Shown: in pieces, positions 26,056-60,992 of the stretch
Position numbering within the stretch: position 1 is the first letter of the stretch
Layout: each line of letters begins with the position of its first letter
NCBI GenBank assembly: GCA_000091205.1
Contig: AP006497.2
DNA: 64,000 nucleotides
Source of the DNA: Cyanidioschyzon merolae
Lineage: Eukaryota
Direction: 5' to 3' (one strand)
The notes under the pieces: model-generated
The model's input: only the letters and a program-made list of their open reading frames with translations
Told to the model about the DNA's origin: nothing
Database searches by the model: none
Position numbers and translations under genes: made by a program

Positions 26056-26089
26056 GCCTGCCTGCCTGCCTGGCTGCCTGCCTGCCTGG

Positions 26090-26124
<35 letters not shown>

Positions 26125-26182
26125 GCTGCCTGCCTGTCTGCCTGGCTGCCTGCCTGCCTGCCTGCCTGCCTGTCTGCCTGCC
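26056..26182. repeat. (CCTG)n tetranucleotide microsatellite with CTGG variants, about 127 bp
   Basis: gcctgcctgcctggctgcctgcctgcctggctgcctgcctgcc... is seen directly, between the LeuA-family gene (minus) and the VKOR gene (plus). Confidence 0.9.
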
Positions 26183-26245
26183 GGCGCGCCGCGCACCCCC
26201 GTCGCGCACAATCGCAGCAGCGATACGCTGCCGCCCCTGAATTGC

Positions 26246-29699: not shown

Positions 29700-29850
29700 C
29701 TGACTTCCAGAATGCTATCGATTTCAGTTTCTGCTTGTACACTTCGAGCATCAGACGCTACCTCACAAGCTTCGATCGCGTCAGCTCTGCAGGTTTCCTC
29801 TTCAATACTCCACATTTCCTGATATTGATGGTAGCGGGAAGTCTTGGCAC
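29700..29850 (-). pseudogene. Second decayed relic of the TnpB/Fanzor-like family (RuvC-III tail)
   Basis: Minus-strand translation ...TDVVRVPRLPATINIRKCGVLKRKPAELTRSKLVR*RLMLEVYKQKLKSIAFWKS aligns with NRDLNAAINIRRSAVMGKRPPELTGENFVGQRLMVELYRMKMKPVVGGQS of the full copies. There is an in-frame stop, an upstream TAA, and the RD of the motif is lost. Confidence 0.45.
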
Positions 29851-30478
29851 ACGAACGACATCCGTTTATTGCCGCTGTTTGAACACATTAATCCAAGGTT
29901 CCTCGAACTCGTGCCCCGTTTACCACGAAACTCTCGTCGTCGTCTCGACGTGCGAACACTTTTTCTCGCCCATAGCCGCTATGTTTCTTCTCCTTCGTCA
30001 TTTGCGCTTCTTCGCTCGATGATAGGCAACAAGCGGATTTTTCTTTTTTTCAGGCACACGGCGACACCAAGCCCGCAGGCTCTCCGCCTTCCATGCCCAC
30101 ACCGTCGCCTTGGGTTCTGTACTTTAGAGACTTAGCGCACTTGGAACGCTTCTCCTATAAATTGCGAGAAAGCGTTGCAACGCAGGCATCCACGCGCGTG
30201 GAACCCAGCCGTGCTGAAATCGAGTGTTGCGCGTGACGGCGAACGCACGCCATGCGATGCTGCTGCTGCTGCTGCTGCACCGGTAATCTCGTACGCGACG
30301 CTAGTTTCTACGAACCAACGCGATATTCTGCTGCGCTGTTGGTTTTGGTTGCAGTTTCGTTACGTATTTTTGAGCTAGATCGAGTTTGGTTGCACCTGAA
30401 CCTCACGTCGTGATACCCTGAGCGCCGTCCGTGGTGTCCTAGGGAGAGGCCTCTCGGATTCCGTGGCTTTCACACGCC

Positions 30479-33816: not shown

Positions 33817-36800
33817 TCAGAAATCGACACCTTCAATACGGTCTTCGATTTCGCGGTACAGATCCCGCAAGCGTTCGATATTCTCCTCGGAGGTTTCCCA
33901 GTAGCCACGGCCGTGTGCCTCCAGCATCGTTGTCACCATAGAGCGGAAGCTGTTGGGATTCGAGTCCATGAGCTTCTTCCGCATGGCCTCGTCGACAAAG
34001 AAGGTCTGGTTGGCGTTCTCATAGACCCAGTTGTCGACAGCGTCCGAGGTCACCGAGAACGCCATGGTGTTCCGCAAACGCTTGGAAAGTTCTCGCACAC
34101 CTTCGTAACCAGAGTTCACGAGTCCGTCGATCCACTTGGGATTCAGCAGTTTGGTCCGGCTATCGAGACGAATGGTCTCGTCGAGGCTGCGCACGGCAAC
34201 GTTCGCCGTCGTCGAGTCCGCGATATACGAGCGGGGCTTGCGCTTGTCACCCCGAAGGGCGGCAACCCACTTCTCGTTTGCGCCATCTGCATAATTCGAG
34301 ACGTCCGTCAAGGAGATCTCAGACGAATCCAGATTCTGCATCGTGACCTCGACGGTTTTGAGCGCCCGCTCGAAGCGCTGCCGCGCGGGAATCATGGCCC
34401 CCGGGCGATCACTATCGTAGGCGAAGGATTTGCGAGAGAGGTACTGTTCCTGGAGCTGCTGTTCATCGGTCCATCCTCCATTTTCAATGGCAATGCCAAC
34501 GTTCGCAGAATAACTGCCCGATGCATTCGAAAACACACGCGTTGCTGCCTCCCGTACACTGATGTTCTCCTCGGCTGCCTGCTCCAGGGCGTGCTTGCGC
34601 ACGTAGTTCATCTCGGGCGGTTCATCAGCCTCTGCTGCCATCTTGATCGCTTGGTCCATCAGCGCCATCTGGTTGATCAACAGATCGCGAAAGATGCCGC
34701 TAACCGTGACGACCACATCGATTCGTGGGCGTCCCAGCTCCGAGAGCGACACCAGCTCCACCCGGTTGACTCGTCCCGATGCGTCCGGCACCGGACGTGC
34801 CCCAATGAGCCACAGCACCTGGGCAATGCTCTGGCCAAACGACTTGATCGCCTCTGTGCCATAAAGTACCAGCGATACCGTCTCTGGCATTTGACCTTGG
34901 TTCGCGGCTGCTTCCCGCTCGAGCAGGCGCTCTACGACGACTTTGGCTTCGGCGAAGGCCGAACTCGTCGGAATCGACTGCGGATCCAGCGCGTGAATGT
35001 TCTTGCCGGTTGGGACGACGGCGGGGTTCCGGATGGGATCTCCCCCCGGACCCGGTTCGATGTAACGTCCTTGGAGTGCCTGCATCAGCGAACCGAGCTC
35101 GTTATCCTTAATGATCTGCTCTAGGCAGACCTCAAGGTACTCAAAGAGCGGCTTCAGGTCTCGTGCTGAGCACTGGGGAAAGCCGCTCTCCTCGAGCGCC
35201 ACCAGATACGTCGGTTTGATCGCTTCGGACAGGAACGATACCATCACGCGATCAATGCGTCCATCCTTGTTGACTGACTTGGAGACAACCCGCTCAACAG
35301 CGTTGCGGCACGCACGCTGAATGCGATCCAACAGCTCGACATCGTCTAGCGCTGTTGAGCGGTACAACTGCTCAATATCCCGATCAACAGACTCGGCTAC
35401 AATACGGGGCAAGGCCTTGAGTCCTTTCTCCGGCCGATCGACACCGGCGATATTCACGAGTGTTGCTACCGCCTCCGCCGCAGTCGGTGGTTTGCCTATC
35501 GTATGCAGCCCGATCGGCAACAAACGAGCTTCTATCTCCATGAGACGGGCGTAGATCGATCCAATAACCTGGTCCCGCTCTTGACGCGTGAGTTGATCGA
35601 ATCCGTCTACGGGCAAGTTGGGAATGTCTCGGTCGAGGTTGCACTGTCGAGCGGTTGCGACGATCGCTGCGCACAGTGCAGCAGCTCTGGACTCATTCGC
35701 ACGCAGTTCCTGGTACTCCCGGATAAGCGATTGACACTCTTTGAGTTCCTTGTAGAGGCCGGCGTTCTCTGCAGGCGGTGTAAGGTAGGAGATGATTCCG
35801 GCGTAGGAGCGTCGCTTCGCTATGGTTGCCTCCGAGGGATTATTCGCGGCATAATAGTAGAGGTTGGGTAGACCCCCGATGAGAAGGTCGGGGTAGCAAT
35901 CTCCACTCATGCCGACCTGTTTGCCCGGCATAAATTCCAGACTTCCATGCGTTCCAAAATGAATCACCGCATTCGCGTCGAAAATCTTCTGCAACCACGT
36001 ATAGCAGGCTGCGAATCCATGATGCGGCGATGCAGACTTGGAGAACAGCAGCCGCATAGGGTCGCCTTCGTACCCGAAACTTGGTTGCACGACCACGGCG
36101 ACATTTCCGAACTGTGCACCGTAGACCAGCAGATTTGTGCCGTCGGTGTTCAGGGTACCGGGAGGCGGACCCCAGTGCTCCTGCAATGAACGCTGATACT
36201 CACATAGACGTTCGTATTCGGATACAGGCATTCGATAGAGCACGTTGAGTTCAGGCGAGCTGATTTTGGCCTCGCGATCGTGCAGTACGCGCTCCATCAA
36301 CGCATCAACAGTCTCGGGAATATCACCGACGGTATAACCATCCAGCTTCATTGCCTGGAGGACCTTGTGGATCGAGCCGAACACGTCCAGATAGGCCGCG
36401 GTACCGACATTGCCCTTGTCTGGTGGAAACGAGAACACGACGACTGCAACCTTCTTCTCGCGGTTCTTCATGCGTCCAAGTTGGGCCCACTTCAGCGCTC
36501 GTGACGCCAGCAAATGAATGCGATCGTGCAGTGGAATACTCCGCCCTGTGAGTCCGTCTCGCCCCGCATAGATGAGCGGCTCGATCGCGCCGTCCAGCTC
36601 AGGCAGACTAACCTGTAATGCAGTCTGAATCGGATGCAGTCCGAGCTCGCTTCGCTTCCACTCATCAAATGTCTGGAATACAAGCGGCAGCGAGCAAATG
36701 TATGGGCGATTCAGGGCTTTGAGGGCTGCAACTGCGCGCGGATGGTCCTGTTTGGCGGGACCCCCAACCAGCGCAAATCCCGTAAGCGACACAACGACGT

Positions 36801-38091
36801 CGACCAGGGGCACTGCTGTATTCAGCGCATAAAAGAAACGGTTCACTGGCTCGCTGAAATCCAGGGCTCCCGAGAAAATCGGGATTACTTTCGCTCCACG
36901 GGCCTCCAGTTCCTGGATGAACGACACATAGTGACAATCATCTTTGGTGACCAGATGAGAGCGCTGCAGTACGATGCCGATGGTGGGCGCATCATTCGCA
37001 AGCCTTGCTCGCGGAGCGTGCTCCTTGTCGTACCAACGTATGTACTCGGTGACGTCCTCAAACATCTTGGGTGCCACAGGATGCCAGATTCCTGCATCCG
37101 GAAACAGGACCGGATCCTTCACTTCAAACTGGAAGCTCTGAACATCCTGAACGTACTTGGATGCAACCATTAAGATCATGTTTTCGAGGTTCTCTACAGT
37201 GCCCCCGAGCCAGTACTGAAAAGAGAGCATAAACGATCGCGCATCCTGAGCCTTGTCGCTCGGCAAGTACTTAAGCACCTTTGGCAGAGTGCGCAGCAAG
37301 CGAAGCATTTGGGACTCGAAGTCTGCACCCTGTTGTTCTCGCCGTTTCTTCATGATCTGCCCGATGAACGATGTCGTAGACTGTCCAGTCTGGTTCAGTT
37401 GGCCCATACTAAAAGCCCCGAGTTTGTTCAGTTTCATCACCGGAGGTAAGGACGGAAACACGACGCATGCATCGAGACGATCTCTTACAGGCGCGACGGC
37501 GGCGACGACCTTGTCGGCAAGCTCTTGGACAAAAATCAGAGATCCGATGAAAATGTTCGCATCCGCAATATCGCGCTTGAAGGCGTTGTAGTTGGCCTCG
37601 TTTCGAAGCTCCTCCAGGAGATAGCCACTCAGTTCCACCGCCATGTGCTCCTGTTTCGCGTTGATCTTTCGAACCGCAGCCGTCAGCGTCGACTGGTACT
37701 GCGACTCCAACACGACATATACAATTTTGACCAGTTTCCGTCCTTCTAGCACTGGAGGTACAATGTGCCTGTCCTCTGGCTTCGACGCCGTAAACAGGCC
37801 GCCTGGCGCTCCGGCCAGAATGCCCGTACCGTCGTCATTCACACCGTTTCCACCAGCGTTCCAGTTCACTGCAGCACCCGTACCTTTACGGCGCTCGTTC
37901 GCAGCAGTCATCACCGACCGAGTGCGCATCTGTTGCGAGCGGCGGCTGCTCGAAGGCAGCACCAGCGGCCCCCAGGCTGAGGTCTTGCCCCACTGGTGCA
38001 GCGGCTGCACGGAACCAGCTTTCACAGCAACACCGGTTCCTAAAAAGCGCTTCTGCAACGTGGTACTCGGCGCTACAAAGCTAATCTCCAT
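33817..38091 (-). CDS. CHLH: Magnesium-chelatase subunit H (ChlH), 1424 aa, with N-terminal transit-peptide-like extension
   Basis: ATG at 38091. The blocks [70 protein letters not shown] and the overall length match ChlH/BchH rather than the shorter CobN. The N-terminus [11 protein letters not shown] is Ser/Thr-rich with an early Phe. Confidence 0.9.
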
Positions 38092-38589
38092 ATTTAACGC
38101 ACGGTGGAATGTTTACCAGACCCTACGCTGGACGGAAGAAGCGTTCAGGTTGTGAAGCGTACACTACTTCTCTTCGTCAAACGTGTCTACTATGCGCAAG
38201 CCTCTGCACACGTGACAAGATGCTACGAGTTACTATACGCTCCAGGGAACGCTGAACTAGAAAATATCAAAACCAGACGCCAAGCCACAGCAATGCTATG
38301 CGCTCGTAGCAAAAGAGCGCGATAGGTTGTAAAGTGACCCGGAGATCAGTTCGACGAGGGCATGCGGCGGTGCAGTCGCACCTGCGCGTATCAGCGACGG
38401 CAGGAACGGCGGCGACGATCAGAAAACGACCGATGCAGAAGCGTTGAGGGCCGCATTGCGCAGCGCCCCGGATGGTGACCTGAAGCGTTCCTCCGGAGGT
38501 GCAGGGAAATCAGTGGAATAAAATGGATATTTATGGATAGAGTGCGTCGGGATCTGATTCTTATCTTCACGAAACGATGACATCGGGAC

Positions 38590-40557
38590 CATGGATCCCC
38601 GAATTCGGAATCTATGATGGCTTTCGGGAAAGCGTCCACCATGAAGCACTTTCCTTCAAGTTCCATTACCCATACTTGCTTTCGGATAAACAGGTCTTTT
38701 CATAGGTTCCATCCAGCGGCGAATGGCTGCCTTGAGCACTCGCCGTAGCGCCTGCACCGCTCAAGCAGATGCTGCATAGAGAGTCAGAGGGGCTCTGCAA
38801 TACCACAGAGGGCGTCGGCTCGAGGCGTCATTCATTCAACCTCGACTCGACATTCATAATGAAACTGGGAGCCTGCAAGCGCTGCTGACAGACCTACTGT
38901 CTGCGGCAGCGCGAAGCAACAGACTAGGAGTCCACTGCGACCAGGGCGACGCCCAGACGCAGTAAAGCGGCGTCTAGACCCAGAATGAACTGCGTTGCGG
39001 AAGAGTTGAACAGGTCTCACGAAAGCACCTGCCACTGGAGGAAGCATAAAGCGCGACCCGGGCAGACTCGTCCAGGTCGCGGGACCTTCCGCCTAGGGGG
39101 TAAGCTTTTGACGGCATCGGAAACTTTCCCCTCGTTTCACGTCTATCGTAAAGCGGGGAAGGAATCGTTATCTCGTTGCAATGTAGTGGTACGTTGCTGT
39201 TATTTTGTCTATACGGCGCTCGACAGGCGCACCTGGAATATCTGGCGGTCACGAGACAAGACGGATATCTCGCCGTTGAAGGGAAACCCGATCGTGATCA
39301 TTTGCGTGTTGCTCTGACGTACATGTTGTGTTTGCGTTACAGTCGTGCCAAAGTACAGTATTTCATCTCGATGGTGTTTCGACCATCAAGCAACGATATT
39401 CCGGTAGTTTTCGCGCAGTTTGTATCAGAAGCGTTCAAAAAGCGTTCTTTTTCAAAAAAACAAAAAAGGAAAGTTTTGGAGAGGCAAGTCGTCGATCCCA
39501 GAGGCCAAGTGTCACCGGATGCCGGAAAAAGCGGAGAGCACTGCCGAGCCCAGAAGCACTGGAGAGGACCGCGACGCGGAAAGTGCATGAGAACGACTTG
39601 GTCGTTGGTGCAGACGCCGGACACACGAAGATCCGTAGCCATCGCGGTTCGCGAGTGTGCGGAAGATGGCATGGACGGTAACCTACGTCCGAAAGACATG
39701 CGGCTTTTGAGCTTCTCGAGAGCGAGATGCTATCGAGAATCTGGAATCATGAATGCAAGGACAAAAATCGAGACGTGGAACGCAGGAATGAAGGATCACG
39801 TGGAAGCTTCGAGCGATGTGACGAGCCGAGGAGCAGACTTTCAAACTTTTCTGAAATGCATGGAAGTTCGCGTCGCTGACTGGGAGGCGCTGTGGAAAGC
39901 GTATCCAAAGCCCCGGTGGGCTCGTCTGCGTATGCGTCTATACTGTGGGAAGCAGCGCGCATTCGCCAATTTTTTCAATCCACTGAACGCCTTGAAGGAG
40001 GACGAGGGTCAGAGGCTCCTAGTAGCGTACGGAGCAGGGCGCTGGATGACCCAAAACAGGATATACGCCAGCTCCAACAACAAGAACGTACAAGGAGCGC
40101 GCACGGCGTTTTGTCACCATACCGATAGATGCGTTCCGAACATCGTACACACACCATGAGCTGGGCTGCACGCTTCAGAGGGTCGAGATAGAAAAGTGCC
40201 AGCGGGGCCCTGAGCATTTAAAAAAGTACGGAGCGCCGACGGAAGAGCAAATGGAAAGGAGGGCAAAAGTGCGAGAGCTACTCGCATTAGTATATACAAC
40301 CAGTGATGGCAAGAAACGTATGGAATTCGTGAACCGAGACTTGAACGCCGCTATCAATATTCGGAGAAGTGCGGTGATGGGGAAAAGACCTCCAGAGTTG
40401 ACAGGAGAGAATTTTGTGGGGCAGCGTCTCATGGTCGAATTGTACAGAATGAAAATGAAGCCAGTTGTAGGTGGCCAGTCGAGCGAGACAGTGAGGCTTC
40501 GGCGTTTCAGTTGGAGACGTTTTGTGTAGGGCGCGTTTGCCGCCACTGCTGTATACC
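38590..40557 (+). mobile_element. Copy A of a ~1.97-kb TnpB/Fanzor-like (IS200/605-OrfB-related) element
   Basis: Near-identical to 48310-50278 at a constant offset of 9721 bp with no indels across about 1.9 kb. The edges are more diverged than the core. It encodes a RuvC-fold TnpB-like protein. No terminal inverted repeats are evident, as expected for IS200/605-type elements. Confidence 0.65.
39176..40529 (+). pseudogene. TnpB/Fanzor-like RuvC nuclease gene split across two overlapping frames (+1 shift between ~40045 and ~40105)
   Basis: Frame 1 (39176-40159) carries a RuvC-I-like AEDGMDGNL and downstream ...LLVAYGAGRW. Frame 2 (open from 40050) reads RRFVTIPIDAFRTSYTHHELGCTLQRVEIEKCQRG...MEFVNRDLNAAINIRRSAVMGKRP. 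That contains the TnpB block V.P.YTS..C, a zinc-ribbon-like region and the RuvC-III hallmark RD.NAA.NI. A frameshift (or recoding) is needed to join the two frames. Confidence 0.6.
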
Positions 40558-41175
40558 GCTGCGCCACCGTGTTCCCATGGAAGAGAAATTTCGAAAACTT
40601 GAAGACTGCGTGACTGGGAGCTTCTGCACACGAATTCGAGAGTATATCATTTGCTCTCCGATGCCTTGTTCGACGGCGTCGCGAATCTTCATGTTTCCCG
40701 TGGCGTATCGAACTGCAGCGGTAAAGATCCCAGGTATCCATTCCGAAAACCCGACCGAGAATCCTAAAACTACCTTTGAGTTCTCAAGTCCGTCTCTTTA
40801 TATTTCGAATGTCGACTTTGGAAATCACGGAATAAAACATTCAGAAAAAAATGCAAAGCCACGAACACAGTGCGAGCATCTCCCAATCCACTTGTAATCC
40901 AGGATTGGCGTGGTATCATCTGCGCGCTGTTGATGCAGCACTAGCACCAATACGCTGGTCTCTCAGGAACTCAAGTCGGTTGGGTCCTAAAAACCACCAG
41001 CGTGGGAGGAATTTTCATCTGTCCGTGCTAACCGCTTGGCTGTTTCTTTGAACCAGTGGCGGGAAGCAAGGCTCGGTTCACTAGGACGAGTCTAGCGGAG
41101 CGTTACGGTGCTGATCGAAAGGCCGTGCCGCTCTACCGCCGAGCACTCCGAGTTCATGTGGCTGGCTCTTTCGAC

Positions 41176-44100
41176 ATGAGCGCCGGTCCACGTTACAGCG
41201 ACGAGTCAGGCACGTTCTTGCTCGAAACGAGCCGTTTGGCTCGGCGCCGAAGAGCCGTCGTCGAGGAGCTGTGGAACCATCGTCTGGCGTGGCCACCAGC
41301 ACAACTGCATCACGTTTACCAGGGCACGTTTTATACGAGCCTGAATGATCTAGACGTTGCTCGAAGTGCCTTCCGCGAGTCTCACGTTCCCTTACGCGAA
41401 GCGTTGGGCACCGAAATCCAAATGCTTCTGGGTTTCGACCTTGATAGTGGAAAGTGGTGCGGCCGTATGCCTGCACCGCCTCCGTTGCCGGACAGTTTCG
41501 TGTACAAAGTGCTTTTCGAGTCCGGCTTGCCTTGGCAGGAAAGCGTGCTCGCGCTTGGGTATATCCCTTTCCAGTATGGTTTATCTGGCGATGCTACCGA
41601 TCGGTTAACCCGGTTTCGTGAAACCTCTTGGCGCAAAGCACCAAGGGCGGCACCAGCAGGCGCACCCGAACAGAGTCGTGGACGCTCGCTAAAGAACAGC
41701 TCCTTGGTGGACACTACGCAACCAGTGATAGTACCTTTGCGCTTGAGCGCCGTCCTCCTGGAGCAGGCAGTGACCTTTCTAATGACAAGCGTTTCTGGAG
41801 CTTCTTTGGAGGACCCCGACACGATCGTCGTTAGAGAACGCACGAGCGCTGTTCTCTGTGGAGATGTACAAGTTGCTTCGCAGGATGAATCGACGCCATC
41901 GTCGATACCAACATTGAAACCTCACCATGAGTTCTCAGATCGTGTACAGCAACAGACGCATCGCGCCGAACCCGCCACGGATATGGCGGTTGGAGAAAAT
42001 AGGTCCAGGAGGACAACACCTGCTTGCGTGCGTCGCATGAATGTGTGCACTGGTGAAGCGCATGCAACGGCACCTAGTAGAATCACGTCGCCTACTCGGC
42101 CGGATAGGTACCAAGCAGCGTTTGGGCATCGAGCCAAAACAGGTCGATTAGCGGCCTCATCTCATGCCAGCGCTGCTGATGCTGCTGCTTCCGCGTCTAC
42201 GAATACAGCCCCAGCAGGTACGGGACAATGCGAGCAGAATGACCTGGCGCAGCGAGAGCGGCATTTTTTGATAGGGAGACATATCGCAAGGCTTCCATCG
42301 ATGCTAGCGCGCTGTTTGCTCATTCGTCTGATTGCCACAAACCAGCTAACGCTGCCGCTGCTATGCCTTTTCCAGGGATTGGAGCTGCCGATCCTTTCGC
42401 TGAGATCGTGTCGTATGCACATCACCGACACGTGGATGCCGTTAATTGGGACTTTTGTGGGGCTCGAAGAACTCGATCTCTCGTTCTGTCATCGCATCAC
42501 TGACCAGGGTATCCGTTTCCTCGCTAGGCGTTACGGATCCGAAGAGAACACCGAGGAGCCGTCGGTGGCGTCGAGAACGCTGCGATCGCTTTCTCTCCAG
42601 GGGTGCAACCAGCTGACCAATACGGCAGTTTTACACCTGGAGGCGTTTCCGCGGCTGAAACGACTCGACGTGAGCGATTGCCCCAATATGGGGAATGCGG
42701 CGCTTCAGGTTCTCGCGGAGCGCTTTCGGCTGAGAGCACTCTCGGTTGCTCGTTGCGAGCGGGTCGGGAGCTCCAGCATAGCGGCGCTGTTACGGGGAGA
42801 AAACCACAATCGCATGGCATCTAGCAAAAGCGTACAGCTCGACCAGAAAGCACCCATCGAAGAGGTACCGTTGGAGACCAATGAATGTCAGTTAGAGTTT
42901 TTGGACGTTTCTGGATGCCCAGCTGTTGGCGAGTACGCCTTTCTTGGATCCGCAACACGCTTCAGTAATCGTATCGCTGCGAACGCTGCATCGCCGTCGA
43001 CCGGCTTGCCGCTTCGGACTCTGCGTTTACGAGGATGTACGCGGGTCAACGACACGGTTTGCGAACAAATAGGGCATCTGTTCCGAAATCTGCAGGAGCT
43101 GGACCTTTACGGGTGTGCACGCGTTACCGATCGCGGCATACTAGACTTGGTACGAAGCCTCGAAGAATCCCTCCAGGTGCTCTGCTTGGCGGAAACCCAG
43201 ATTACGGACAAGGGGCTCGCCGCATTGGCACAGCTGCGGTGTTTGCGTCGCTTGCACCTGACCCGCTGTCGACGGCTGGAGTTTGCACCAGGTGTTATGG
43301 AGATGTTCTGTACCCGAATGGCTGCGCAGGCGAGTCTGAGCGAACTCCGATTGCGCTCTCTGCCTTCGGTGAACGCCCGAGTCATCGCAGAACTGAGCGG
43401 TTTGTTTGTCGCGGGCGAGCTCAAGCATTTGAATTTGACGGACTGCCACCAGGTGAACGACGAGGCACTGCTGGCTCTGGGCGAGGCGCTGCGCGTACGC
43501 CTTATGGACGCCACGCCTCGAACGTCGTCAAGAACGGGAAACTCCTCAGCTGTCGCCACACAGCGACCTCCGCGTTGTCTCGTACAATCTTTATCGTTAC
43601 GGAATACCGGTATCCGCGATACAGGCCTAATATTCAAGGTTTTTATTGGCATGCGTCATCTGGACCTGGGCGAGTGCCCGACCCTAGAGAAACTGGATAC
43701 GCTCTTTGGCGACATTGCCGAGGCGGAGGAAGCACTTGCACGTTTCGGACGCCGTTCGATGCGCCTAGAGCGGCCTGCGGTGCCCACTGCGAACCGCACC
43801 AGTGCGCCTGCCTTCAGTGCCTACGAGGGCATCGTTTCAGGCACCTGCAGCCGTGCTTGCCGCGATTCGCATGATGACGTCGCAGACTGGCGAGGTCGCA
43901 CAAACACCAACACAGAGGATGCCGGCTGCTGGGCGCCTTGGGGCCTCGCGAACGCACGCGCCTCACAGGAAGCGGGGTTGTCCCATGGACCAAGCGCACT
44001 GCCCGTGGTCCCTCCCTGGCTGAATACGCTCGAATATCTGGACTTGTCCCATTGTCAGTCGGTTTCATTCGCAAATCTGCGTACACTGCGCTCAGAAAGT

Positions 44101-44838
44101 TTGCGAATCCTCATACTCGATCATTGTTCTGGGGTGACAAACGCATGCGTCGCCCTGCTTGCCTATCACGTACCGAATCTCCAGGAATTGAGCCTGCGCT
44201 TCACTGCCGTTGGTGACCTGGGAATTGCCGCTTTTGCGAACCGCTTCCGGCATTTGGAGAAACTGCACCTTCGAGGCCTACCCGATGTGACGCATGTTGG
44301 CATACGACGACTTGCTGCGTCTCCACTGGCGACGAAGCTCCGTGTTTTGGAGCTTGCCGAGTGTCCAGCGATCGGCGAACTTGCGCTCGCATCCCTGAAT
44401 GGCATGAAAGCGCTCGAATATCTGAGCCTCAAAGGATGCACCGAAATCAACGACGCTGCATTGCGGCAATTAGAAGACGTACCAGTTTTGACGGTTCTTA
44501 ACCTGCGGCAGTGTCCTTTAGTGAGCAGCAAACAGATTGAATTGTTGCGCAGTCGACTGCCAAGTCTTGTCGAAGTGAAATTTTCAAATGAATCCAGGGG
44601 CCTTGCGGAGCACACCGGCACGCCGAGTGCGCTTGTGGATAGCTTTCTCGCCTACGTTCATGGCGGTTCGCGAAGATCACCAACGGGTCGAAATCAGGCG
44701 CTTGCGCGGCAGCAACAAGTCGATGAGGCAGCACCGTCTCCGACTCGCATTTTTCTGGACATGTTTGACGCTTGGGAGATGGGACAGCGTTCAGCCCGAC
44801 GCCGCTGCAGCCGTAGTAGCAGCAGCGCAAACCGCTAA
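41176..44838 (+). CDS. F-box/LRR-repeat protein (FBXL/GRR1-type cysteine-containing leucine-rich repeats)
   Basis: Many LRR_cc units of the form L..L.L..C..(I/V)TD.G(I/L): LEELDLSFCHRITDQGI, LRSLSLQGCNQLTNTA, LKRLDVSDCPNMGNAAL, LQELDLYGCARVTDRGI, LRVLELAECPAIGELAL and so on. A putative F-box-like LPSMLARCLLIRL lies upstream of the repeats. The track start is GTG 41056; the first ATG is 41176. Confidence 0.65.
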   Translation: MSAGPRYSDESGTFLLETSRLARRRRAVVEELWNHRLAWPPAQLHHVYQGTFYTSLNDLDVARSAFRESHVPLREALGTEIQMLLGFDLDSGKWCGRMPAPPPLPDSFVYKVLFESGLPWQESVLALGYIPFQYGLSGDATDRLTRFRETSWRKAPRAAPAGAPEQSRGRSLKNSSLVDTTQPVIVPLRLSAVLLEQAVTFLMTSVSGASLEDPDTIVVRERTSAVLCGDVQVASQDESTPSSIPTLKPHHEFSDRVQQQTHRAEPATDMAVGENRSRRTTPACVRRMNVCTGEAHATAPSRITSPTRPDRYQAAFGHRAKTGRLAASSHASAADAAASASTNTAPAGTGQCEQNDLAQRERHFLIGRHIARLPSMLARCLLIRLIATNQLTLPLLCLFQGLELPILSLRSCRMHITDTWMPLIGTFVGLEELDLSFCHRITDQGIRFLARRYGSEENTEEPSVASRTLRSLSLQGCNQLTNTAVLHLEAFPRLKRLDVSDCPNMGNAALQVLAERFRLRALSVARCERVGSSSIAALLRGENHNRMASSKSVQLDQKAPIEEVPLETNECQLEFLDVSGCPAVGEYAFLGSATRFSNRIAANAASPSTGLPLRTLRLRGCTRVNDTVCEQIGHLFRNLQELDLYGCARVTDRGILDLVRSLEESLQVLCLAETQITDKGLAALAQLRCLRRLHLTRCRRLEFAPGVMEMFCTRMAAQASLSELRLRSLPSVNARVIAELSGLFVAGELKHLNLTDCHQVNDEALLALGEALRVRLMDATPRTSSRTGNSSAVATQRPPRCLVQSLSLRNTGIRDTGLIFKVFIGMRHLDLGECPTLEKLDTLFGDIAEAEEALARFGRRSMRLERPAVPTANRTSAPAFSAYEGIVSGTCSRACRDSHDDVADWRGRTNTNTEDAGCWAPWGLANARASQEAGLSHGPSALPVVPPWLNTLEYLDLSHCQSVSFANLRTLRSESLRILILDHCSGVTNACVALLAYHVPNLQELSLRFTAVGDLGIAAFANRFRHLEKLHLRGLPDVTHVGIRRLAASPLATKLRVLELAECPAIGELALASLNGMKALEYLSLKGCTEINDAALRQLEDVPVLTVLNLRQCPLVSSKQIELLRSRLPSLVEVKFSNESRGLAEHTGTPSALVDSFLAYVHGGSRRSPTGRNQALARQQQVDEAAPSPTRIFLDMFDAWEMGQRSARRRCSRSSSSANR

Positions 44839-45177
44839 CTTGGATCTCGTATAACGACTGCAAGTTGCCACGCTTCTGGATTCGCACATGAACGCTCCCC
44901 AAAGACCGGGTCGAATGCAGGCTACAGCGAGCGCTCGGGCACGCGGAACCGAGACGCTTTCCGTTTAGACCGTTATCACATGCGGCGACGATGCGTTCTT
45001 TCGGACGACGACGAGACCGCCATACTTGCCTCCGTCAAGCGGTGTTTTCTGGTCGCATCCGGTTCACTCGCTACTCGGCGACGTAGAGACGTCAGGTGCC
45101 GTCTCAGAGCACAGCATCCGATCGATTGATGCACCTCAAGGCACAGGGCGCCTTTGTTGCAAGCATTGCCGCCAGTA

Positions 45178-45201
45178 GCGGCGGCGGCGGCGGCGGCGGC
45201 G
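45178..45201. repeat. (GCG)8 trinucleotide repeat
   Basis: gcggcggcggcggcggcggcggcg, in the convergent 3' intergenic region. Confidence 0.9.
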
Positions 45202-45831
45202 CCTGACACGACTGCCGTGCCCTGTAGTGCCTCGCTATGTACGAATACAGCCCAGGCGCATGCCCTGTGTATGTGTGTGTGTGTACAGACCTCGGCGGAG
45301 AAGTTGCGGCGTGAAACGCTTCGGTGCACAACTGGGTCACGCTAGTGCAGAGCGAGCGTTTCTCGCATGCGAACACTGCACAGGCTGAATACAGGCGAAC
45401 AGATGGGACGCTGGGGCCTGGTTACCCGCTGGGATTCCCTCTCGCGGCTGGCAAGTTGCCCCAGTCATGTCTGGCCACTCGCTTCTCATCGCGTAAAGCG
45501 CTTTTTCGCGAGACGGCGTCGTCTGCGCATGCCGGCTACGACGCCCTGCAGCATATCACGAGGGGATCAGCGGCAGCCCGCGTCGCCGCTGTACAGCGCA
45601 TCCCAGGTCACATCAGCACCTGGAGCATTGTTTAAACGTACCGCGCTTCTCAAGCCAAGTGCGGTTTATCGCGTGCTTTCGAAGATAGGGAATGGCTCTG
45701 GAACGGAGAGCTGGTCGCTTTCCCAAATGGCGATGCAGAAACGCATATCCCTGCATCCTTGGTTCGATGCAACGCGTCCACAGAAAAACGTGCCGCAGAG
45801 GCGCGATCACCGCTACGTCATCTTTATCCAT

Positions 45832-47931
45832 TTATATACTATATCGTCCAGATTCTTCCGTGCTGCCCGATGCCTTGTGTCTGCCGTTCGCATCCGCCTC
45901 GTGTGATAACGACAGCACCGCTACCGTCTCTATATGCGGTGTGTGCGGGAACTGGTCAACCAGCGCCACTTTCTCCAGGCGATACCAAGGTGCATCTCGC
46001 AAGAGTAGGTCTAGGTCACGCGTCTGGCTCGCTGGATTACAGGACACGTATACAAGGCGGCGCGGTCGTAGTGCCGGCGGTGCACCGGCGATCGCTTTGA
46101 GCTGCCGCGGGTGCACGCCGGCACGCGGCGGGTCCATTACCAGCAGGTCCACTGGATGTTGCCGCGCCAGCGGCAAGTGTCGAAAGATGACTTGCCACAA
46201 GTTCTCTTTCTCCAGGTCCGTCACTTGAAAAACCGTGTTTGTGCGTGCATTGAGTCTGGCGTTCGTGCGGGCGTCATCGACGGCACTCGCCACGAGCTCC
46301 AGTCCCAGAACTTGCTCGGCGAAAGGTGCCAAGCAAAGCGCAATGGTGCCAGTGCCGCAGAAGAGGTCCACAACGAGCGCACCGGTGTCTTGTCTGGCCT
46401 GCGGGCTCGACACGGCAAGCTCGGCAGAAGACTCTGCAGCGGGTGACACCTGACCGACGCTCGGCTGTTCCAGGAGGCCGCTGTTCTCCAGAACAACCGC
46501 CATGAGCCGTTCAGCTTGTGCTGGATTCGTCTGAAAGAAGGAATTCGCGGAAATCTGAAAGTTGATGCCCGTCTCGGACCAGGAGCTGGTTTGGATTCGA
46601 GAGCGCACGTGGCGAAGCGGACGCAGGCACTGTTCGATGGTATCCTGGGTACCTGCCAGGCGTCGTTGGCTCTCTCCGACCGCAACTCCGGAGCGATTGC
46701 TGGTAATGTTTTGCAGCACGCAAACAAGGCCACGATTGGTCTCACCGAAAGCTTTCCACAGCGCAGCCGCAACGTCCTCCAGTGCAGCCTGCTGGTGAGC
46801 GTCTGCCGGTGGGCTCGTGACTAGGTTGACCATCACCTGCGTCTGATTGTGTCGGTCTTGAGCTGTCCGAATGACCAGGTTGCGCAGGAAACCAACGTGT
46901 TCCACGAGGTCGTAGGGCGGCAAGAGCGTCTCGGCCAGCGGTCGACAATGACGCTCGACGAAGCGAAGGATTTCGTTCGCGACGTCGATCTGAAGTGCGC
47001 AGTCCTCAATGCAGAGCACCTTATCGTAGCGTCGCGGTACGTGCAGTCCCAGCGCAAACCCAGTGCGCATGTCCTCACCGCTTTCCGGAGCTGTGTCCGT
47101 CCCGGGTCGTTTCCTACCAGAACTAACCGTGTTTTCGTCTCGCGTGGACGTGTCCCGGCCCTGACGCAGCGTGACCTTTCCGCTATCGTCTGCTGTATTC
47201 GGTTTCGGACGCCATACACGAGTTCCAAAGGTGAAATCCATCTTGTTCCGATACGCGTAGAGTCCTGTAGGCACCGTTGCTCCTACGGCCGGTAAGAACT
47301 CTACCGATGCCTCAGATGCAAGTCCATCTGTCTCCAGACGGCGGAGCAAGGCCCGATACATGTCACGAACTTGCTCCTCCTTCTCGGACAACTGTTTTGT
47401 GTAGATCAAGTTCTGAAACTTGCAGCCTCCACAACCTTCGAGGAAGTGTCGACACAGTGGCGCAGTTGCGAACATCGAGGGTGGATCTAGGCGTTCCACC
47501 ACTATCGCCTCCGCATGGTTACGTTTCCGACGAATGATGCGAGCACGCACTCGTTCTCCTGGAATGGCGTTGTGGACGAGCACCACGAATGACTCGTTCT
47601 CACTCAGTTGCAAACGACTGACGCCCATGCCAGTACCGTGCGCCAGTGACTCGACAGCGAGCTCCACCAGGAGGCCGCGCGAGGGCGACTTTTGTGACGA
47701 GGGCGCTCCAGGTCCATCGGTCGCTACCATGGTAGCGCTAGAGAGTCGCTCGCCCGCTGAAAAGTGTCGAGTTTGACGACTCCTGTGACACGGACGCTGC
47801 CAGACGCGTGCCCTGTAGATAATCGGTGAAAGCACTCGCGCAAAAGCAGGTTTTAGCGACACAGGTCTTTCGAAAAGTGAAACATACGTTCGTTCGACCA
47901 GGACAGCACCAGTGCGAATCTCTGTCCGCAT
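45832..47931 (-). CDS. TRM2/RumA-family RNA (uracil-5)-methyltransferase
   Basis: ATG at 47931. TRAM-like VLVHNAIPGERVRARIIRRK. Fe-S-type Cys cluster CRHFLEGCGGCKFQN. SAM-binding VVDLFCGTGTIALCLA. C-terminal nucleophile motif LVYVSCNPAS. Confidence 0.85.
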   Translation of the reverse strand: MRTEIRTGAVLVERTYVSLFERPVSLKPAFARVLSPIIYRARVWQRPCHRSRQTRHFSAGERLSSATMVATDGPGAPSSQKSPSRGLLVELAVESLAHGTGMGVSRLQLSENESFVVLVHNAIPGERVRARIIRRKRNHAEAIVVERLDPPSMFATAPLCRHFLEGCGGCKFQNLIYTKQLSEKEEQVRDMYRALLRRLETDGLASEASVEFLPAVGATVPTGLYAYRNKMDFTFGTRVWRPKPNTADDSGKVTLRQGRDTSTRDENTVSSGRKRPGTDTAPESGEDMRTGFALGLHVPRRYDKVLCIEDCALQIDVANEILRFVERHCRPLAETLLPPYDLVEHVGFLRNLVIRTAQDRHNQTQVMVNLVTSPPADAHQQAALEDVAAALWKAFGETNRGLVCVLQNITSNRSGVAVGESQRRLAGTQDTIEQCLRPLRHVRSRIQTSSWSETGINFQISANSFFQTNPAQAERLMAVVLENSGLLEQPSVGQVSPAAESSAELAVSSPQARQDTGALVVDLFCGTGTIALCLAPFAEQVLGLELVASAVDDARTNARLNARTNTVFQVTDLEKENLWQVIFRHLPLARQHPVDLLVMDPPRAGVHPRQLKAIAGAPPALRPRRLVYVSCNPASQTRDLDLLLRDAPWYRLEKVALVDQFPHTPHIETVAVLSLSHEADANGRHKASGSTEESGRYSI

Positions 47932-48309
47932 CCACGAGCAGTGCGAAAGGGCAAGTACTCGGAGCCTGGAAACACAGCGTCAGTGCCAGTTCGAGACTGA
48001 GCGACCTGCGTCCGTCTTGGTAGAGGTTTTCAACTTGGCAGGCTCGCGAAGCCGACTTTTCGGTTAAGGGACGCACTGTTGCTGCTCTTTAATCCTAACG
48101 AGAGCTTGCCTCTTCAGCAGAGACTACCGCGTTCCAATAGCCCCGCAGTAAAGTTCGTGAAGAGAATAGAGTCTGGTTTTTCACGCGGCTCTGCGGGGGT
48201 AGCGTCTACCGCTGGTGTTTTAAGAAAAAGCGGTACGATGTGTGGTTTTGGAGCAAAAGAGCATCGCGCAGCGTAGATATGTCCTCGATGACAGAACGTC
48301 TCCATTGAT

Positions 48310-50278
48310 CAGGGATCCCAGATTGCGGGATGGATTTCGGCAAGCGGGAAAGTGTTTATGAAACTGTACCCTACCTTCAAGTTCCATTACCCATACTTGC
48401 TTTCGGATATACAGGTCTTTTCATAGGTTCCATCCAGCGGCGAATGGCTGCCTTGAGCACTCGCCGTAGCGCCTGCACCGCTCAAGCAGATGCTGCATAG
48501 AGAGTCAGAGGGGCTCTGCAATACCACAGAGGGCGTCGGCTCGAGGCGTCATTCATTCAACCTCGACTCGAGATTCGTAATGAAACTGGGAGCCTGCAAG
48601 CGCTGCTGGCAGACCTACTGTCTGCGGCAGCGCGAAGCAACAGACTAGGAGTCCACTGCGACCAGGGCGACGCCCAGACGCAGTAAAGCGGCGTCTAGAC
48701 CCAGAATGAACTGCGTTGCGGAAGAGTTGAACAGGTCTCACGAAAGCACCTGCCACTGGAGGAAGCATAAAGCGCGACCCGGGCAGACTCGTCCAGGTCG
48801 CGGGACCTTCCGCCTAGGGGGTAAGCTTTTGACGGCATCGGAAACTTTCCCCTCGTTTCACGTCTATCGTAAAGCGGGGAAGGAATCGTTATCTCGTTGC
48901 TATGTAGTGGTACGTTGCTGTTATTTTGTCTATACGGCGCTCGACAGGCGCACCTGGAATATCTGGCGGTCACGAGACAAGACGGATATCTCGCCGTTGA
49001 AGGGAAACCCGATCGTGATCATTTGCGTGTTGCTCTGACGTACAAGTTGTGTTTGCGTTACAGTCGTGCCAAAGTACAGTGTTTCATCTCGATGGTGTTT
49101 CGACCATCAAGCAACGATATTCCGGTAGTTTTCGCGCAGTTTGTATCAGAAGCGTTCAAAAAGCGTTCTTTTTCAAAAAAACAAAAAAGGAAAGTTTTGG
49201 AGAGGCAAGTCGACGATCCCAGAGGCCAAGTGTCACCGGATGCCGGAAAAAGCGGAGAGCACTGCCGAGCCCAGAAGCACTGGAGAGGAGTGCGACGCGG
49301 AAAGTGCATGAGAACGACTTGGTCGTTGGTGCAGACGCCGGAAACACGAAGATCAGGAACCATCGCCGTGCGCGAGTGTGCGGAAGATGGCGTGGACGGT
49401 AACCTACGTCCGAAAGACATGCGGCTTTTGAGCTTCTCGAGAGCGAGATGCTATCGAGAATCTGGAATCATGAATGCAAGGACAAAAATCGAGACGTGGA
49501 ACGCAGGAATGAAGGATCACGTGGAAGCTTCGAGCGATGTGACGAGCCGAGGAGCAGACTTTCAAACTTTTCTGAAATGCATGGAAGTTCGCGTCGCTGA
49601 CTGGGAGGCGCTGTGGAAAGCGTATCCAAAGCCCCGGTGGGCTCGTCTGCGTATGCGTCTATACTGTGGGAAGCAGCGCGCATTCGCCAATTTTTTCAAT
49701 CCACTGAACGCCTTGAAGGAGGACGAGGGTCAGAGGCTCCTAGTAGCGTACGGAGCAGGGCGCTGGATGACCCAAAACAGGATATACGCCAGCTCCAACA
49801 ACAAGAACGTACAAGGAGCGCGCACGGCGTTTTGTCACCATACCGATAGATGCGTTCCGAACATCGTACACACACCATGAGCTGGGCTGCACGCTTCAGA
49901 GGGTCGAGATAGAAAAGTGCCAGCGGGGCCCTGAGCATTTAAAAAAGTACGGAGCGCCGACGGAAGAGCAAATGGAAAGGAGGGCAAAAGTGCGAGAGCT
50001 ACTCGCATTAGTATATACAACCAGTGATGGCAAGAAACGTATGGAATTCGTGAACCGAGACTTGAACGCCGCTATCAATATTCGGAGAAGTGCGGTGATG
50101 GGGAAAAGACCTCCAGAGTTGACAGGAGAGAATTTTGTGGGGCAGCGTCTCATGGTCGAATTGTACAGAATGAAAATGAAGCCAGTTGTAGGTGGCCAGT
50201 CGAGCGAGACAGTGAGGCTTCGGCGTTTCAGTTGGAGACGTTTTGTGTAGGGCGCGTTTGCCGCCACTGCTGTGCACC
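48310..50278 (+). mobile_element. Copy B of the ~1.97-kb TnpB/Fanzor-like element
   Basis: See copy A. It has the same two-frame gene structure and the same frameshift. About 12 substitutions relative to A cluster in 39176-39700/48897-49421, and most are non-synonymous. Confidence 0.65.
48897..50250 (+). pseudogene. TnpB/Fanzor-like RuvC nuclease gene, copy B, with the same +1 frame split
   Basis: The 327-aa frame-1 ORF differs from A at about 9 residues (for example GVDGNL vs GMDGNL). The frame-2 C-terminal part, including NRDLNAAINIRR, is identical to A. Confidence 0.6.
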
Positions 50279-50328
50279 GCTGACGACTGCTTTCGACTTT
50301 TGAAAGGCGTTTGCTAGCGGTGTAAGCG

Positions 50329-51222
50329 TTGGCGCACCTCCGGAGGACTGACACTGGGCCCGGGCGGTCATCTGTGCAACAGTCGCATGTTCTCGGTATT
50401 CTTCGCTCATATCTGCTTCGCCCGCTCACCACTCGTGGACGCAGTCACTGGCACGCAGTACCGAGCCGAGCACTCGTGGCCGTAGCAGAGCGCCCTGCTG
50501 GCCCTGGAGGCGTGCAAAAGCGCACCGAACGCGTCGTACCGAGTGAGGCCGCTCGACAGGAGCGCACTGCCCGTCTGCGTCGCGCCGTAGACCTTCCACA
50601 AAATCGCATTTATCCCTTTCTAGAGCATAAGGTTGCTGGCGAGGCCAAACGCAAGGACCTCCTGGCCGTTCTGGAGCAGGACTCGAGTCGCTTCGAAGAT
50701 GAACGAGCCATTCGTGACTGGGTTGAGTCACAGATTCAGGAAGCGATTCGGCAAGGGGCGTTCGAGCGGCTCCCGCGAGGGCCACTGCAGCTGCCGCAAC
50801 CACCACTCGGTGTCGACCTTGTCACGTATACCATGCATGGTCTTTTACAGCGGCACGGACTGCGACCTGTCTGGATAGAATGTATGCATGAAGTAGACGC
50901 CGAAGTGAAACGTATTCGTCTGGCTCTGGAACGAGCGTATCGAGCTCGAGTTGCTACCGCCGAGGACACGTCACCTGCGAGCACAGCACAACGAGCTGAG
51001 CGCTGGGAGGCAGCAGCGCGGGAGCTCCAGGAACAGATGCATCAAGTGAACCGACGAAATGATGCTTTTAATCTCATGAAACCCGAGCGCCTGGACACTG
51101 TTTTCCGACTGCGCATGCGTTGGGAGCACGAATTCATGCGCGTCAAGCAACGAGTGGAAAGCGAGTACTCAGCTGAACCGCGTAGCAGTTTAGCTCCGGA
51201 GGCAACGGACCCGAAAGCTTGA
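50329..51222 (+). CDS. DUF1992 (DnaJC28 C-terminal domain family) protein; start codon unresolved
   Basis: IRDWVESQIQEAIRQGAFERLPRGPLQL resembles the DUF1992 core (W.E..I.EA...G.FDNLPG.GKPL). The ORF opens at TTG 50329 immediately after a TAA. The first in-frame ATG falls only at about residue 165, downstream of the conserved core. Confidence 0.45.
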   Translation: MAHLRRTDTGPGRSSVQQSHVLGILRSYLLRPLTTRGRSHWHAVPSRALVAVAERPAGPGGVQKRTERVVPSEAARQERTARLRRAVDLPQNRIYPFLEHKVAGEAKRKDLLAVLEQDSSRFEDERAIRDWVESQIQEAIRQGAFERLPRGPLQLPQPPLGVDLVTYTMHGLLQRHGLRPVWIECMHEVDAEVKRIRLALERAYRARVATAEDTSPASTAQRAERWEAAARELQEQMHQVNRRNDAFNLMKPERLDTVFRLRMRWEHEFMRVKQRVESEYSAEPRSSLAPEATDPKA

Positions 51223-58660: not shown

Positions 58661-60992
58661 GCAGGCACCGGGCCGACGCGCAATGGTGCAGTGTGCTTCT
58701 CACTCTATGCTCACGAGCACGCGAAGGCAACTCATGAAGCGGCAGTTTGTTTTCGAAGTGTGTTCACTCGGGGGTACGAAATCTCCGCCTCGCACTTGAT
58801 TTGACCAGGTCGAAACAGTGGGCATTATGCTGGGAGCATTCTACGCTGGAATCTGTATACCAGCACCTCATTGTTTTTGTTTGTTTTCTACCAGCTGTTG
58901 AACAAACCCGGAGTATCCTGTGGATCGGAGAATAGCTGCGGAAAGACGATACGCGGTCACTGGTGGCTTACGAAGGACCGCGTTGCTTCGGCAAGCCAAT
59001 TATTCTACTATTAGCAGGTAGGTGAAGCTCCTGTCACGCAGTCCTCATTCAGAACGTCGCGTACCTAAACCAGAACTTGATTAACTCGATGAATATGAAT
59101 GCCTCTTCCTCGATCTTTTCCACTCGATAGATTCCCCAAGAAATGCTACCGAACAAGGCTAAGGATGCAAAGTCTTCGCACCGTGGATACGACCGGTGAT
59201 TACCAGACACGAATGTACTGGAAACAAATCGCGTTTCTATGGAGGAGTATCGCGCATTGACCAAGTACCTATCGATCTCGTACCGAGTCGCTAACGCTTA
59301 CTACATGGCGGGACGGATGCTCGCCAACTGTGGGGAGCATTCACCTGCGAGAAACGATAGACCTGTCCATAGGCTGGCAAAGAGCAGCAAACCGCTGTTC
59401 AGAAAGCAGAGGCAAGGAGCCTCTACAAAAGCGTCACCCCAAGCGCCGATTTCATCCTGTGTACGCCAACCAAGCGCCAAATGCATGGGATCATTCACCA
59501 TCTCGTCCTTCATCGAAGCGATTCGTGGCTTCTGTTTCCCACATGCCTCTGTCCAGGGCGTAGAACGTGTGGCTCCCGATTACCCAGAAGCGGTCGGCGA
59601 GTAGGCAGCTGAAATCCGCGTCGAGCTGCTGTTCCTGCTAGCCTCTTCTTTCTCGGTACGTCCGGTCAAAGGAGTCTTGTTTTTCGTGAAACACCGACTC
59701 GAAGCTCACCGATCCATCAATGAGTCGTGCCCATCTGGGACACACTTCCTCGATGAATCGCTCTTCGACATGTCGTTCTTGATGTCACCTGGCCCTGAAG
59801 TGGTGTGTTGCACCTCTGGTCATGCACTGGAGGGAGTGGTATGAGGCGCCTCGGTCCACGGGCGTGCTCGCGACCGAGAAGGTAGCAAAGAGGTATTCGA
59901 CGAGTCGCACGTATGCATACTTATAGAGAAAGCAAGTTTCGGTTCTACCTCTCACCCAATAAGACTGAATCCCGACGGAAACGAACCGATGTAGAGGGTA
60001 CCGATCACGGCTATGCTACCGCGCCAGGTAGCGGGGAAGAAGAGATCGGACAAGGAAGAAAAAAGATCCTCACGAAAAGAGGACAATAGGAGGCAGGAAG
60101 GAAAAACACGTCGGATCGGAACCATCAGTTTGCTGTCGTCGTTAATGACTTGCTAATACAACACAACAACGAGAAGAATCTTTTGAAGCGTGCGATGCAG
60201 GTCGCCAGGCGCGATCGCGTAGCTTCGAACTCGACAAGTCTCGCGGAGCGTCTCCCGCCTTGCCGCGCATCGTCGAGCATCTAATCCAGGGCACCCGGAC
60301 ACCCAGCGCTGCTACCTGTCCACATGGTTCTCGGAATCTTTCGATCAAACCTTCATGCGATCATACAGTTCATGTTCACGACAGAACATGTCGTACGGTA
60401 TGATCCAAGGATCGGAAGTTTGCATACTCACACACATAGACAGTCACGCTTCCCAGTGTACCTTGAGCGGTCGCCACACCACCTCAGCGACTGGAACCTT
60501 AATAGCACAGATACCAAACAGGATCAAACCATGCCCAGCCGCTCCTACACCAGACGTCTGGGGACAGAGGCGCAAAGCAATGCTCGGATGCACGTCGCAC
60601 CCGATGACATCATCGATCTCATTCGAAACAAGGAGCATCTCACGAACGGGGCGCTCTATCCATGCGGCATACTGAAAAAATAACACAAAAAAGTAAGACA
60701 AGAAAAATGCGCATCCTCGGAGAACGCTGGCTTAAGGAAACGTTTTGTCCATGAGAAAAAAATCCATGCGGCATCATCGCGGCGGACTGCTGCACACACG
60801 TTGCGCCGAGACGCCAACGCGCCCCTGCGAATCGATCGTCGCGGATACGCCGCCGCCCGGCAGGCCGCAGCGGCGCCCGGCAGGAGATCGGATCTACGGG
60901 CGAGGCGCGGGTAGCCCGCAGGTCCCCGCAGTCGTAGCACGAGGCGTTGTCGTCACTGGTGCTGGCGAAGGTCTGCTTTCACTGGGCTCTTG

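Follow-up and report, generated by a model that had tools for sequence, protein, structure and literature searches.

Two degenerate Fanzor1 elements of Cyanidioschyzon merolae and the probable part of gene conversion in their near-identity

The omega-RNA of Fanzor1 systems derives from the 3' end of the open reading frame (ORF) and the right end of the element, and its 14-15 nt guide is taken from the flank. In the alga Cyanidioschyzon merolae, the Fanzor1 element on record is CMe-1A, which is ~3 kb long, is present in ~150 copies and lacks terminal inverted repeats (TIRs); its target-site duplications (TSDs) were left undetermined and its classification unknown (Bao and Jurka, 2013, Mob DNA 4:12; PMC3627910). 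That study reported no terminal hairpin, left-end T-run, gene-relative position or gene conversion for CMe-1A. Here, we describe two copies of this kind, A and B, which lie 9.7 kb apart and in the same orientation in a 64,000-nucleotide stretch of C. merolae 10D contig AP006497.2 (assembly GCA_000091205.1; hereafter, the window) and are 99.0% identical over most of their length. We conclude that A and B are very probably independent, old CMe-1A insertions that have been homogenised by gene conversion.

Ectopic gene conversion between dispersed repeats occurs in yeast and other eukaryotes, where it affects both duplicated genes and transposon copies. Copies A and B resemble such repeats in their sharp steps of identity, their patchy tracts, the polymorphisms common to the paralogs and their within-genome similarity. 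They differ in that the starting copies apparently came from diverged sub-lineages, and in that a deletion and inactivating mutations seem to have been spread along with the converted sequence.

Copies A and B as remnants of CMe-1A

Self-comparison of the window by blastn aligned 38653-40561 (copy A) with 48374-50282 (copy B) over 1909 bp, gapless and with 19 mismatches (99.0% identity), at a spacing of 9721 bp and with both copies on the plus strand. The initial annotation had described a 1.97-kb direct repeat of 98-99% identity bracketing a leucine-rich repeat (LRR) gene and a TRM2-like gene; its orientation, its bracketed genes and its identity are borne out, and its length is corrected to 1909 bp.

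We assign A (~38558-40561) and B (~48278-50322) to the Fanzor1 family CMe-1A as degenerate, internally deleted members, on the basis of organism, size, protein type and copy number rather than by direct alignment to the CMe-1A consensus. Like CMe-1A, the family of A and B resides in the C. merolae genome, approximates the ~3-kb length (relatives are ~3.2 kb, and full-length ones such as that on the related contig L006 are 3.2-3.3 kb), is present in many diverged copies (~70-80% identity from copy to copy), lacks TIRs and encodes a Fanzor1-type protein. A and B themselves differ from the described element in that ~1.3 kb is deleted, in being frameshifted and in being, as predicted, catalytically dead; A is in addition truncated on the right.

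The protein evidence lies in the 3' part of the repeat. In copy A, 39629-40529 (plus strand) is a remnant of the C-terminal (RuvC) half of a Fanzor1 protein, distributed over three frames and 65-77% identical to family proteins by tblastn. Both copies retain the RuvC motifs GADAG (RuvC-I), IDAFRTS (RuvC-II) and NRDLNAAINI (RuvC-III). The frameshift-corrected translation has 144 homologues of up to ~610 aa, all of them metagenomic and at most 77% identical, and a HMMER search of 1.84 billion representatives returned 1616 relatives. Across the family the catalytic triad (D327, E505 and D568) is invariant. A shallow family profile matched nothing in the PDB, and a diverse one (A7) was needed to reach the solved Fanzor1 structures 9cf0 (PpFz1 of Parasitella parasitica, 3.1e-18), 8gkh (SpuFz1 of Spizellomyces punctatus, 1.6e-12) and 9cer (GtFz1 of Guillardia theta, 1.7e-7). 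This profile-level homology extends over the REC/WED-RuvC regions, and the D...E...D residues of the family stand in the same motifs (GxDPG, DEFRT and NRDxNAA) as those of the solved proteins. On the other hand, the relation is distant, being visible only with the diverse profile, and A and B, unlike the solved proteins, are without the catalytic Glu and without the first two thirds of the protein. A Pfam search with the stitched remnant gave only a sub-threshold match to the Cas12f1-like TNB domain (E = 0.096), the structure predicted by AlphaFold for P0107 was of low quality (mean pLDDT 46.7), and exact look-up returned nothing for the TRM2, LRR and 1142-aa proteins of 10D and one 1-kb contig only for the 92-aa ORF of the element.

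Two features of the wider family were also seen. Intact family proteins (P0001, P0003, P0021 and others) carry a variable number of ~25-aa tandem repeats (ATQEVEDNDLVVDAAKDEEKKEAGP) before RuvC-I, and part of each repeat resembles the NDLVVGADPG start of RuvC-I. Left-end-only relics, which have a long 5' part in common with the elements described here, may correspond to the TE-N2_CMe of PMC3627910, of which 10D has ~70 copies.

Alignment to L006 delimits what A and B have lost. Positions 38657-39569 and 39573-40556 of copy A match L006 8436-9351 and 10654-11635; the two copies thus retain 0.9 kb of its 5' part and 1.0 kb of its 3' part, with ~1.3 kb between them missing. The N-terminal ~430 residues of the protein (two thirds) are absent from both, two +1 frameshifts are common to both (compared with 69-70 family sequences, there is one additional base at 39634 and an additional C at 40057), and in both the catalytic Glu of RuvC-II is changed to Ala (GCG, 40131-40133). 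Neither copy holds an intact D-E-D triad in one ORF. We therefore regard A and B, on account of the N-terminal loss, the two frameshifts and the Glu-to-Ala change, as dead deletion derivatives, neither of which is predicted to encode an active RNA-guided nuclease.

Element termini and independent insertion

A gapless block at 99.0% identity, in which both copies carry one and the same deletion junction, pair of frameshifts and Glu-to-Ala change, could reflect recent transposition or local duplication: one copy would be a young daughter, the mobile unit would measure 1.9-2.0 kb and the 1% difference would give its age. The frequent clustering of elements within a few kb in related contigs fits such copying as well. 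The ends of the block speak against it. We aligned ~40 left ends from related contigs and built left- and right-end profiles without A and B. Family homology reaches ~95 bp leftward from 38653 and 48374, as far as a T-run (consensus TTTTTTTCGATGACAAAACGTTTACATTGACC). The outer left terminus of copy A (T-run plus CACGAAACG; 38558-38652, plus strand) is matched by the 100-bp left-end profile at 38562-38650 (E = 1.7e-14), and that of copy B (48278-48373, plus strand) at 48282-48373 (E = 3.8e-21). Both stand outside the block. Over the left terminus A and B differ at 55-58 of ~112 positions, compared with 19 of 1909 over the block, whose left limit is a family-conserved stretch (CCTTCAAGTTCCATTACCC). 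The left ends proposed in the initial annotation, ~38590 and ~48310, fall inside the element and are neither block boundary nor terminus (the true positions are ~38558 and ~48278), and the similarity to be expected in the 30-50 bp to their left, where a target motif was to be sought, is the left terminus of the element itself.

On the right, the block ends where homology in A ends, directly past the conserved stretch GCCGCCACTGCTGT. Most family members run ~40 nt beyond the equivalent of 40561 as a terminal imperfect palindrome (CACCG...CGGTG) of 40-48 nt, for example L024:2588-2640, L061 and L066. B likewise extends ~40 bp past the block, to ~50322, and finishes in such a palindrome (CACCGCTG...CAGCGGTG; 50275-50322, plus strand), of which only the first 8 nt are inside the block. 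The right-end extension profile matches B at 50284-50324 (E = 1.8e-5) and has no match in A, which is truncated at 40561. The 48-nt terminus of B folds at -20.2 kcal/mol (z = -2.95), compared with z = +1.5 for the equivalent stretch of A; a 175-nt fold gave z = -0.89. Among non-redundant right ends, 18 of 39 fold with z < -2, and the arms of the palindrome vary by sub-lineage (GTTCGA/TCGAAC versus GTTTTTC/GAAAGAC) with complementarity kept. From 32 right ends, RNAalifold recovered only a 4-bp stem, since the alignment does not bring the hairpins into register, and sequences were folded individually instead. No Rfam family was matched. The absence from A of a hairpin that is conserved in the family, together with the ~50% difference of the parts beyond the block, is hard to reconcile with recent copying of a 1.9-2.0-kb unit. 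We take the 99% block to be the interior of two older, diverged elements and not the element itself.

These termini invite comparison with the IS200/IS605 'peel and paste' TnpB elements. Both kinds of element lack TIRs, carry a gene for a TnpB-family nuclease on the 3' side, have a conserved right-end hairpin to which a directly oriented motif of the left end is related, and show short preferred base(s) immediately left of the left end. In the C. merolae family, the 3' two thirds of the hairpin have a counterpart of similar sequence in the left end (TTTTTTC-GAT-GACAAAACGTTT). The CMe-1A-type element differs in its eukaryotic host, in the hairpin standing at the very terminus, and in that its 3.2 kb leave no room for a second ORF or transposase gene, including Y1 TnpA. 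Helitrons, for their part, begin with 5'-TC and finish with CTRR-3', carry a hairpin 10-12 nt upstream of that 3' end, insert at A|T and encode a RepHel protein. A Helitron was rejected, as the terminal hairpin of the family stands at the very end, finishing ...GGTG, and no second ORF fits; Helitron-like character is limited to the A before the T-rich 5' end. A tRNA gene search found none, which ruled out tRNA-gene targeting, and the elements known at both ends did not define a TSD.

The order DJC28-TRM2-LRR-ChlH is conserved in a related species, represented by GCA_041825655.1 and two further assemblies, where 741 bp separate TRM2 from DJC28. In that species, the syntenic 21.9 kb contain no Fanzor, left-end or right-end homology, and both sites are empty. 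Since the sites are empty in this relative and the termini of A and B belong to different sub-lineages, we conclude that A and B occupy formerly empty divergent promoter regions that, as judged from this synteny, were filled separately in the C. merolae lineage. The suggestion in the initial annotation that one copy arose by duplication is therefore not supported: the termini are ~50% different and of separate sub-lineages, both copies are present in other strains, and the relative is empty.

A larger segmental duplication, which the initial annotation had named as telling against its own reading, is excluded because the flanks are unrelated: no similarity outside the elements appeared in the window self-comparison. 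The flanking genes are moreover distinct, single-copy and syntenic in the relative. As to an assembly artefact, A and B were recovered, each with its flanks, in independent metagenome assemblies. Nothing beyond the repeat itself recommends either explanation, and we accord the two together next to no probability.

Gene conversion between A and B

Orthologs of A with their flanks are present on four metagenomic contigs (L001-L004, ~99.4% identical to the window), and orthologs of B with their flanks on two (L005 and L089). Within 10D, the differences between the two blocks are distributed as a mosaic: 7 of the 19 are packed into 50 bp (39622-39671, P = 5e-5), and the following 881 bp (39672-40552) contain none (P = 1.5e-4). 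Across strains, the outer termini stay with their loci. The outer left terminus of A shows 0/113 differences among five strains and that of B 0/112 between 10D and L089, whereas the B terminus differs from that of A at 55 of 111 positions. Diverged strains thus carry both copies with invariant outer termini, which is a further point against one of them being a young daughter.

The blocks behave differently from their termini. In the 881-bp stretch where 10D-A and 10D-B are the same, the orthologous A of the four strain contigs differs from 10D-A at 4-16 positions. Over the 3' part, A and B of 10D differ at 0/805 and A (L003/L004) and B (L089) at 2/805, compared with 10-12/805 between strain groups, including 10/805 between B of L089 and its ortholog 10D-B. 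The B copy of L089 is, over the 5' part, closer to 10D-A (5/1019) than to its ortholog 10D-B (16/1020). Both haplotypes of the 39622-39671 patch are present at both the A and the B locus across strains, and in L002 the patch tract ends at a different point. Paralogs are therefore closer within a genome than orthologs are between genomes, as in concerted evolution, while the flanks behave as orthologs. The mosaic differences, the locus-bound termini and the alleles exchanged by the two copies across strains together lead us to conclude that recurrent non-allelic gene conversion very probably accounts for the 99% identity over 1909 bp (blocks 38653-40561 in A and 48374-50282 in B, both plus strand, with the internal deletion, two frameshifts and Glu-to-Ala change of A also in B). 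Recent transposition or local duplication, under which alleles common to the A and B paralogs across strains are not expected, appears quite unlikely.

The strain comparison also bears on a selective explanation, in which the interior would have been domesticated, for example as a regulatory element or a non-coding RNA of use to the genes nearby, and purifying selection rather than recombination would keep the copies identical. Both copies do stand in divergent promoter regions, and right ends in the family lie 25-150 nt from host ATGs at 24 of 40 loci (see below). Yet orthologous blocks diverge between strains by 0.8-1.8% and the unique flanks by 0.2-0.7%, that is, the block changes 2-5x faster than the flanks, the opposite of constraint. 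Variants are swapped between A and B rather than missing, the coding part is a frameshifted pseudogene, and the Rfam search gave no match. We consider selection of this kind a very unlikely cause.

We propose that two separate old CMe-1A insertions, each into a divergent promoter region, would have come to share a crippled interior, with the 1.3-kb deletion and the inactivating mutations, as conversion spread it between them; the same-orientation copies, 9.7 kb apart, would then repeatedly convert each other and so keep 99% identity. The family members with which the block clusters are also those closest to the A terminus (identity 0.71-0.83), whereas the B terminus does not join them (0.62-0.69). 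This match of terminus and block sub-lineage suggests that A was the original donor (A to B), which would account for the block ending at the truncation point of A. Several points weigh against this interpretation. The differences in terminus identity on which the donor direction rests are modest. Outside 10D, the A and B compared come from separate contigs, so that the within-strain comparison there is approximate, and L089 and L003/L004 come from different samples that show 6-7/2451 differences in the TRM2 flank. If the starting identity of A and B was that typical of the family (~70-80%), they would have been a poor substrate for homologous recombination, which makes the first conversion event mechanistically hard to explain. 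Finally, the right flank of A may conceal a hairpin too diverged to detect.

The initial annotation had viewed the repeats as a substrate for non-allelic homologous recombination that could delete or duplicate the interval. Recombination between A and B is supported in the form of non-crossover conversion; neither deletion nor duplication was seen among four contigs spanning ChlH to TRM2, a small sample.

Position beside gene starts and other repeats of the window

Copy A occupies the divergent promoter region between ChlH and the LRR gene, and copy B that between the TRM2-like gene and a DJC28-like ORF. ChlH (Mg-chelatase subunit H; 33817-38091, minus strand; Pfam CobN-Mg_chel, E = 0), whose protein is identical to C. 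merolae 10D BAM81565.1/XP_005537601.1, has its start facing the left end of A. The start of the LRR (FBXL-like) gene (41056-44838, plus strand; Pfam LRR families and a precomputed LRR_FBXL15 match) faces the truncated right end of A. The TRM2-like tRNA (uracil-5) methyltransferase gene (45832-47931, minus strand; Pfam tRNA_U5-meth_tr, E = 1.4e-19, and a TRAM domain) is turned with its start towards the left end of B, and the DJC28-like ORF (50326-51222, plus strand; Pfam DJC28_CD, E = 3.4e-9) opens 3 nt past the right end of B. The proximity of both left ends to start codons noted initially (380-500 bp) stands, with the distances corrected to 467 bp (ChlH) and 347 bp (TRM2) from the true left ends; from the block boundaries they are 562 and 443 bp.

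The DJC28-like ORF of 10D has its first ATG not before residue 168, inside the conserved domain, and the homologue in the related species has 355 aa. At 50389-50391, 10D reads GTT (CAT GTT CTC) and the strain contig L005 has an in-frame ATG (CAT ATG CTC); the difference is one of several close together, 5 substitutions falling within 15 bp.

The position of A and B recurs in the family. From 80 related loci we derived 71 non-redundant elements in metagenomes of C. merolae-like algae, not 10D, with crude ORF-based gene models. Of 63 downstream neighbours, 45 have their start towards the right end of the element (length-weighted expectation 0.52, p = 0.0015), as have 11 of 13 upstream neighbours towards its left end (p = 0.023). 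Where both neighbours are present, 8 of 12 elements lie in divergent regions (0.29 expected, p = 0.0075). A co-oriented host ATG follows 25-150 nt past the right-end anchor CCACTACTGTA, directly after the terminal hairpin, at 24 of 40 non-redundant loci, and in ~60% of cases with a co-oriented downstream gene the hairpin lies 0-100 nt before that ATG. The abutting host ORFs are often large and include an SMC gene of 1267 aa and others of 1770, 849 and 837 aa (L007, L024, L044, L055 and others). B agrees with this pattern, given its right end at ~50322 and the in-frame ATG of L005. With an ATG right after the hairpin, the host promoter or 5' untranslated region (UTR) must lie in or read through the element.

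The promoter-proximal preference proposed in the initial annotation is thus upheld as a family-wide position, and the enrichment beside gene starts points to insertion bias or selective retention, two causes that are not separable here. It is conceivable, although we consider it doubtful, that CMe-1A elements are targeted to, or kept only at, the extreme 5' ends of genes, with the host 5' UTR serving as the flank from which the omega-RNA guide is taken. The host promoter would then need to be provided or traversed by the element, and breaks made by intact members could drive the ectopic conversion of A and B ('ectopic homing').

Beyond the left terminus, no flank position reaches 0.15 bit of information except -28 and -31 (0.25-0.35 bit). 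An A precedes the left-end T-run in 14 of 25 elements (0.28 expected, p = 0.006) and GA in 9 of 25, and the A is present in both copy A (CTGA|TT) and copy B (TAGA|TA). Known Fanzor1 target-adjacent motifs (TAMs) are AT-rich, 4-5 nt long and adjoin the left end (PMC13565253). The T-run of the C. merolae family may belong to the element or to the target. The shared TAM-like context suggested for the two insertions is not borne out, given the low information of the flank and only A or GA before the T-run. Among the fetched loci, the search for empty paralogous sites gave one ambiguous case only, with the left end inside another repeat.

Other pieces of the family are scattered over the window. 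Fragments of the C-terminal Fanzor region lie at 17697-18041 and 29674-29903 (minus strand; 48% and 40% amino acid identity to A), and left-end-like pieces at 17413-17497 (plus), 60707-60764 (minus) and 63441-63544 (plus; E = 1.4e-12, 2.2e-7 and 0.003, respectively), for a total of at least 6-7 family insertions of differing ages. In related contigs (L013, L018, L030-L032, L037, L043, L049, L064/L065 and others) elements are often clustered, either as head-to-head pairs 100-200 bp apart or as two or three same-orientation copies within 3-10 kb. The arrangement of A and B is not unusual for the family.

The window also holds a 1359-bp inverted repeat (794-2152 and 4539-5897, 99.3% complementary) around a 622-aa ORF (2277-4145), with a weak 149-bp match (74%) at 13027-13174. 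The repeat has no long convincing ORF, and its membership of the CMe-1A family was rejected as the Fanzor left-end profile gave no match; it may be another conversion-homogenised pair. A short tandem array at 26056-26185 appeared in the self-comparison, its copies being 91-96% identical and mostly offset by multiples of 12 bp.

Overall, we regard A and B as relics of a family already catalogued in C. merolae, on which ectopic gene conversion of an ordinary kind has acted. When transposon copies lie close together in C. merolae, their high identity should accordingly not be read as recent transposition, and the boundaries of such blocks should not be used as element ends in searches for TAMs or target sites. 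For Fanzor biology, the analysis yields as by-products the real termini of the family, with a T-run at the left end and a sequence-variable, stem-conserving palindrome at the right, and a statistically supported position beside gene starts, with right ends abutting host ATGs. Both the termini and this position bear on the transposition mechanism of this unclassified element.

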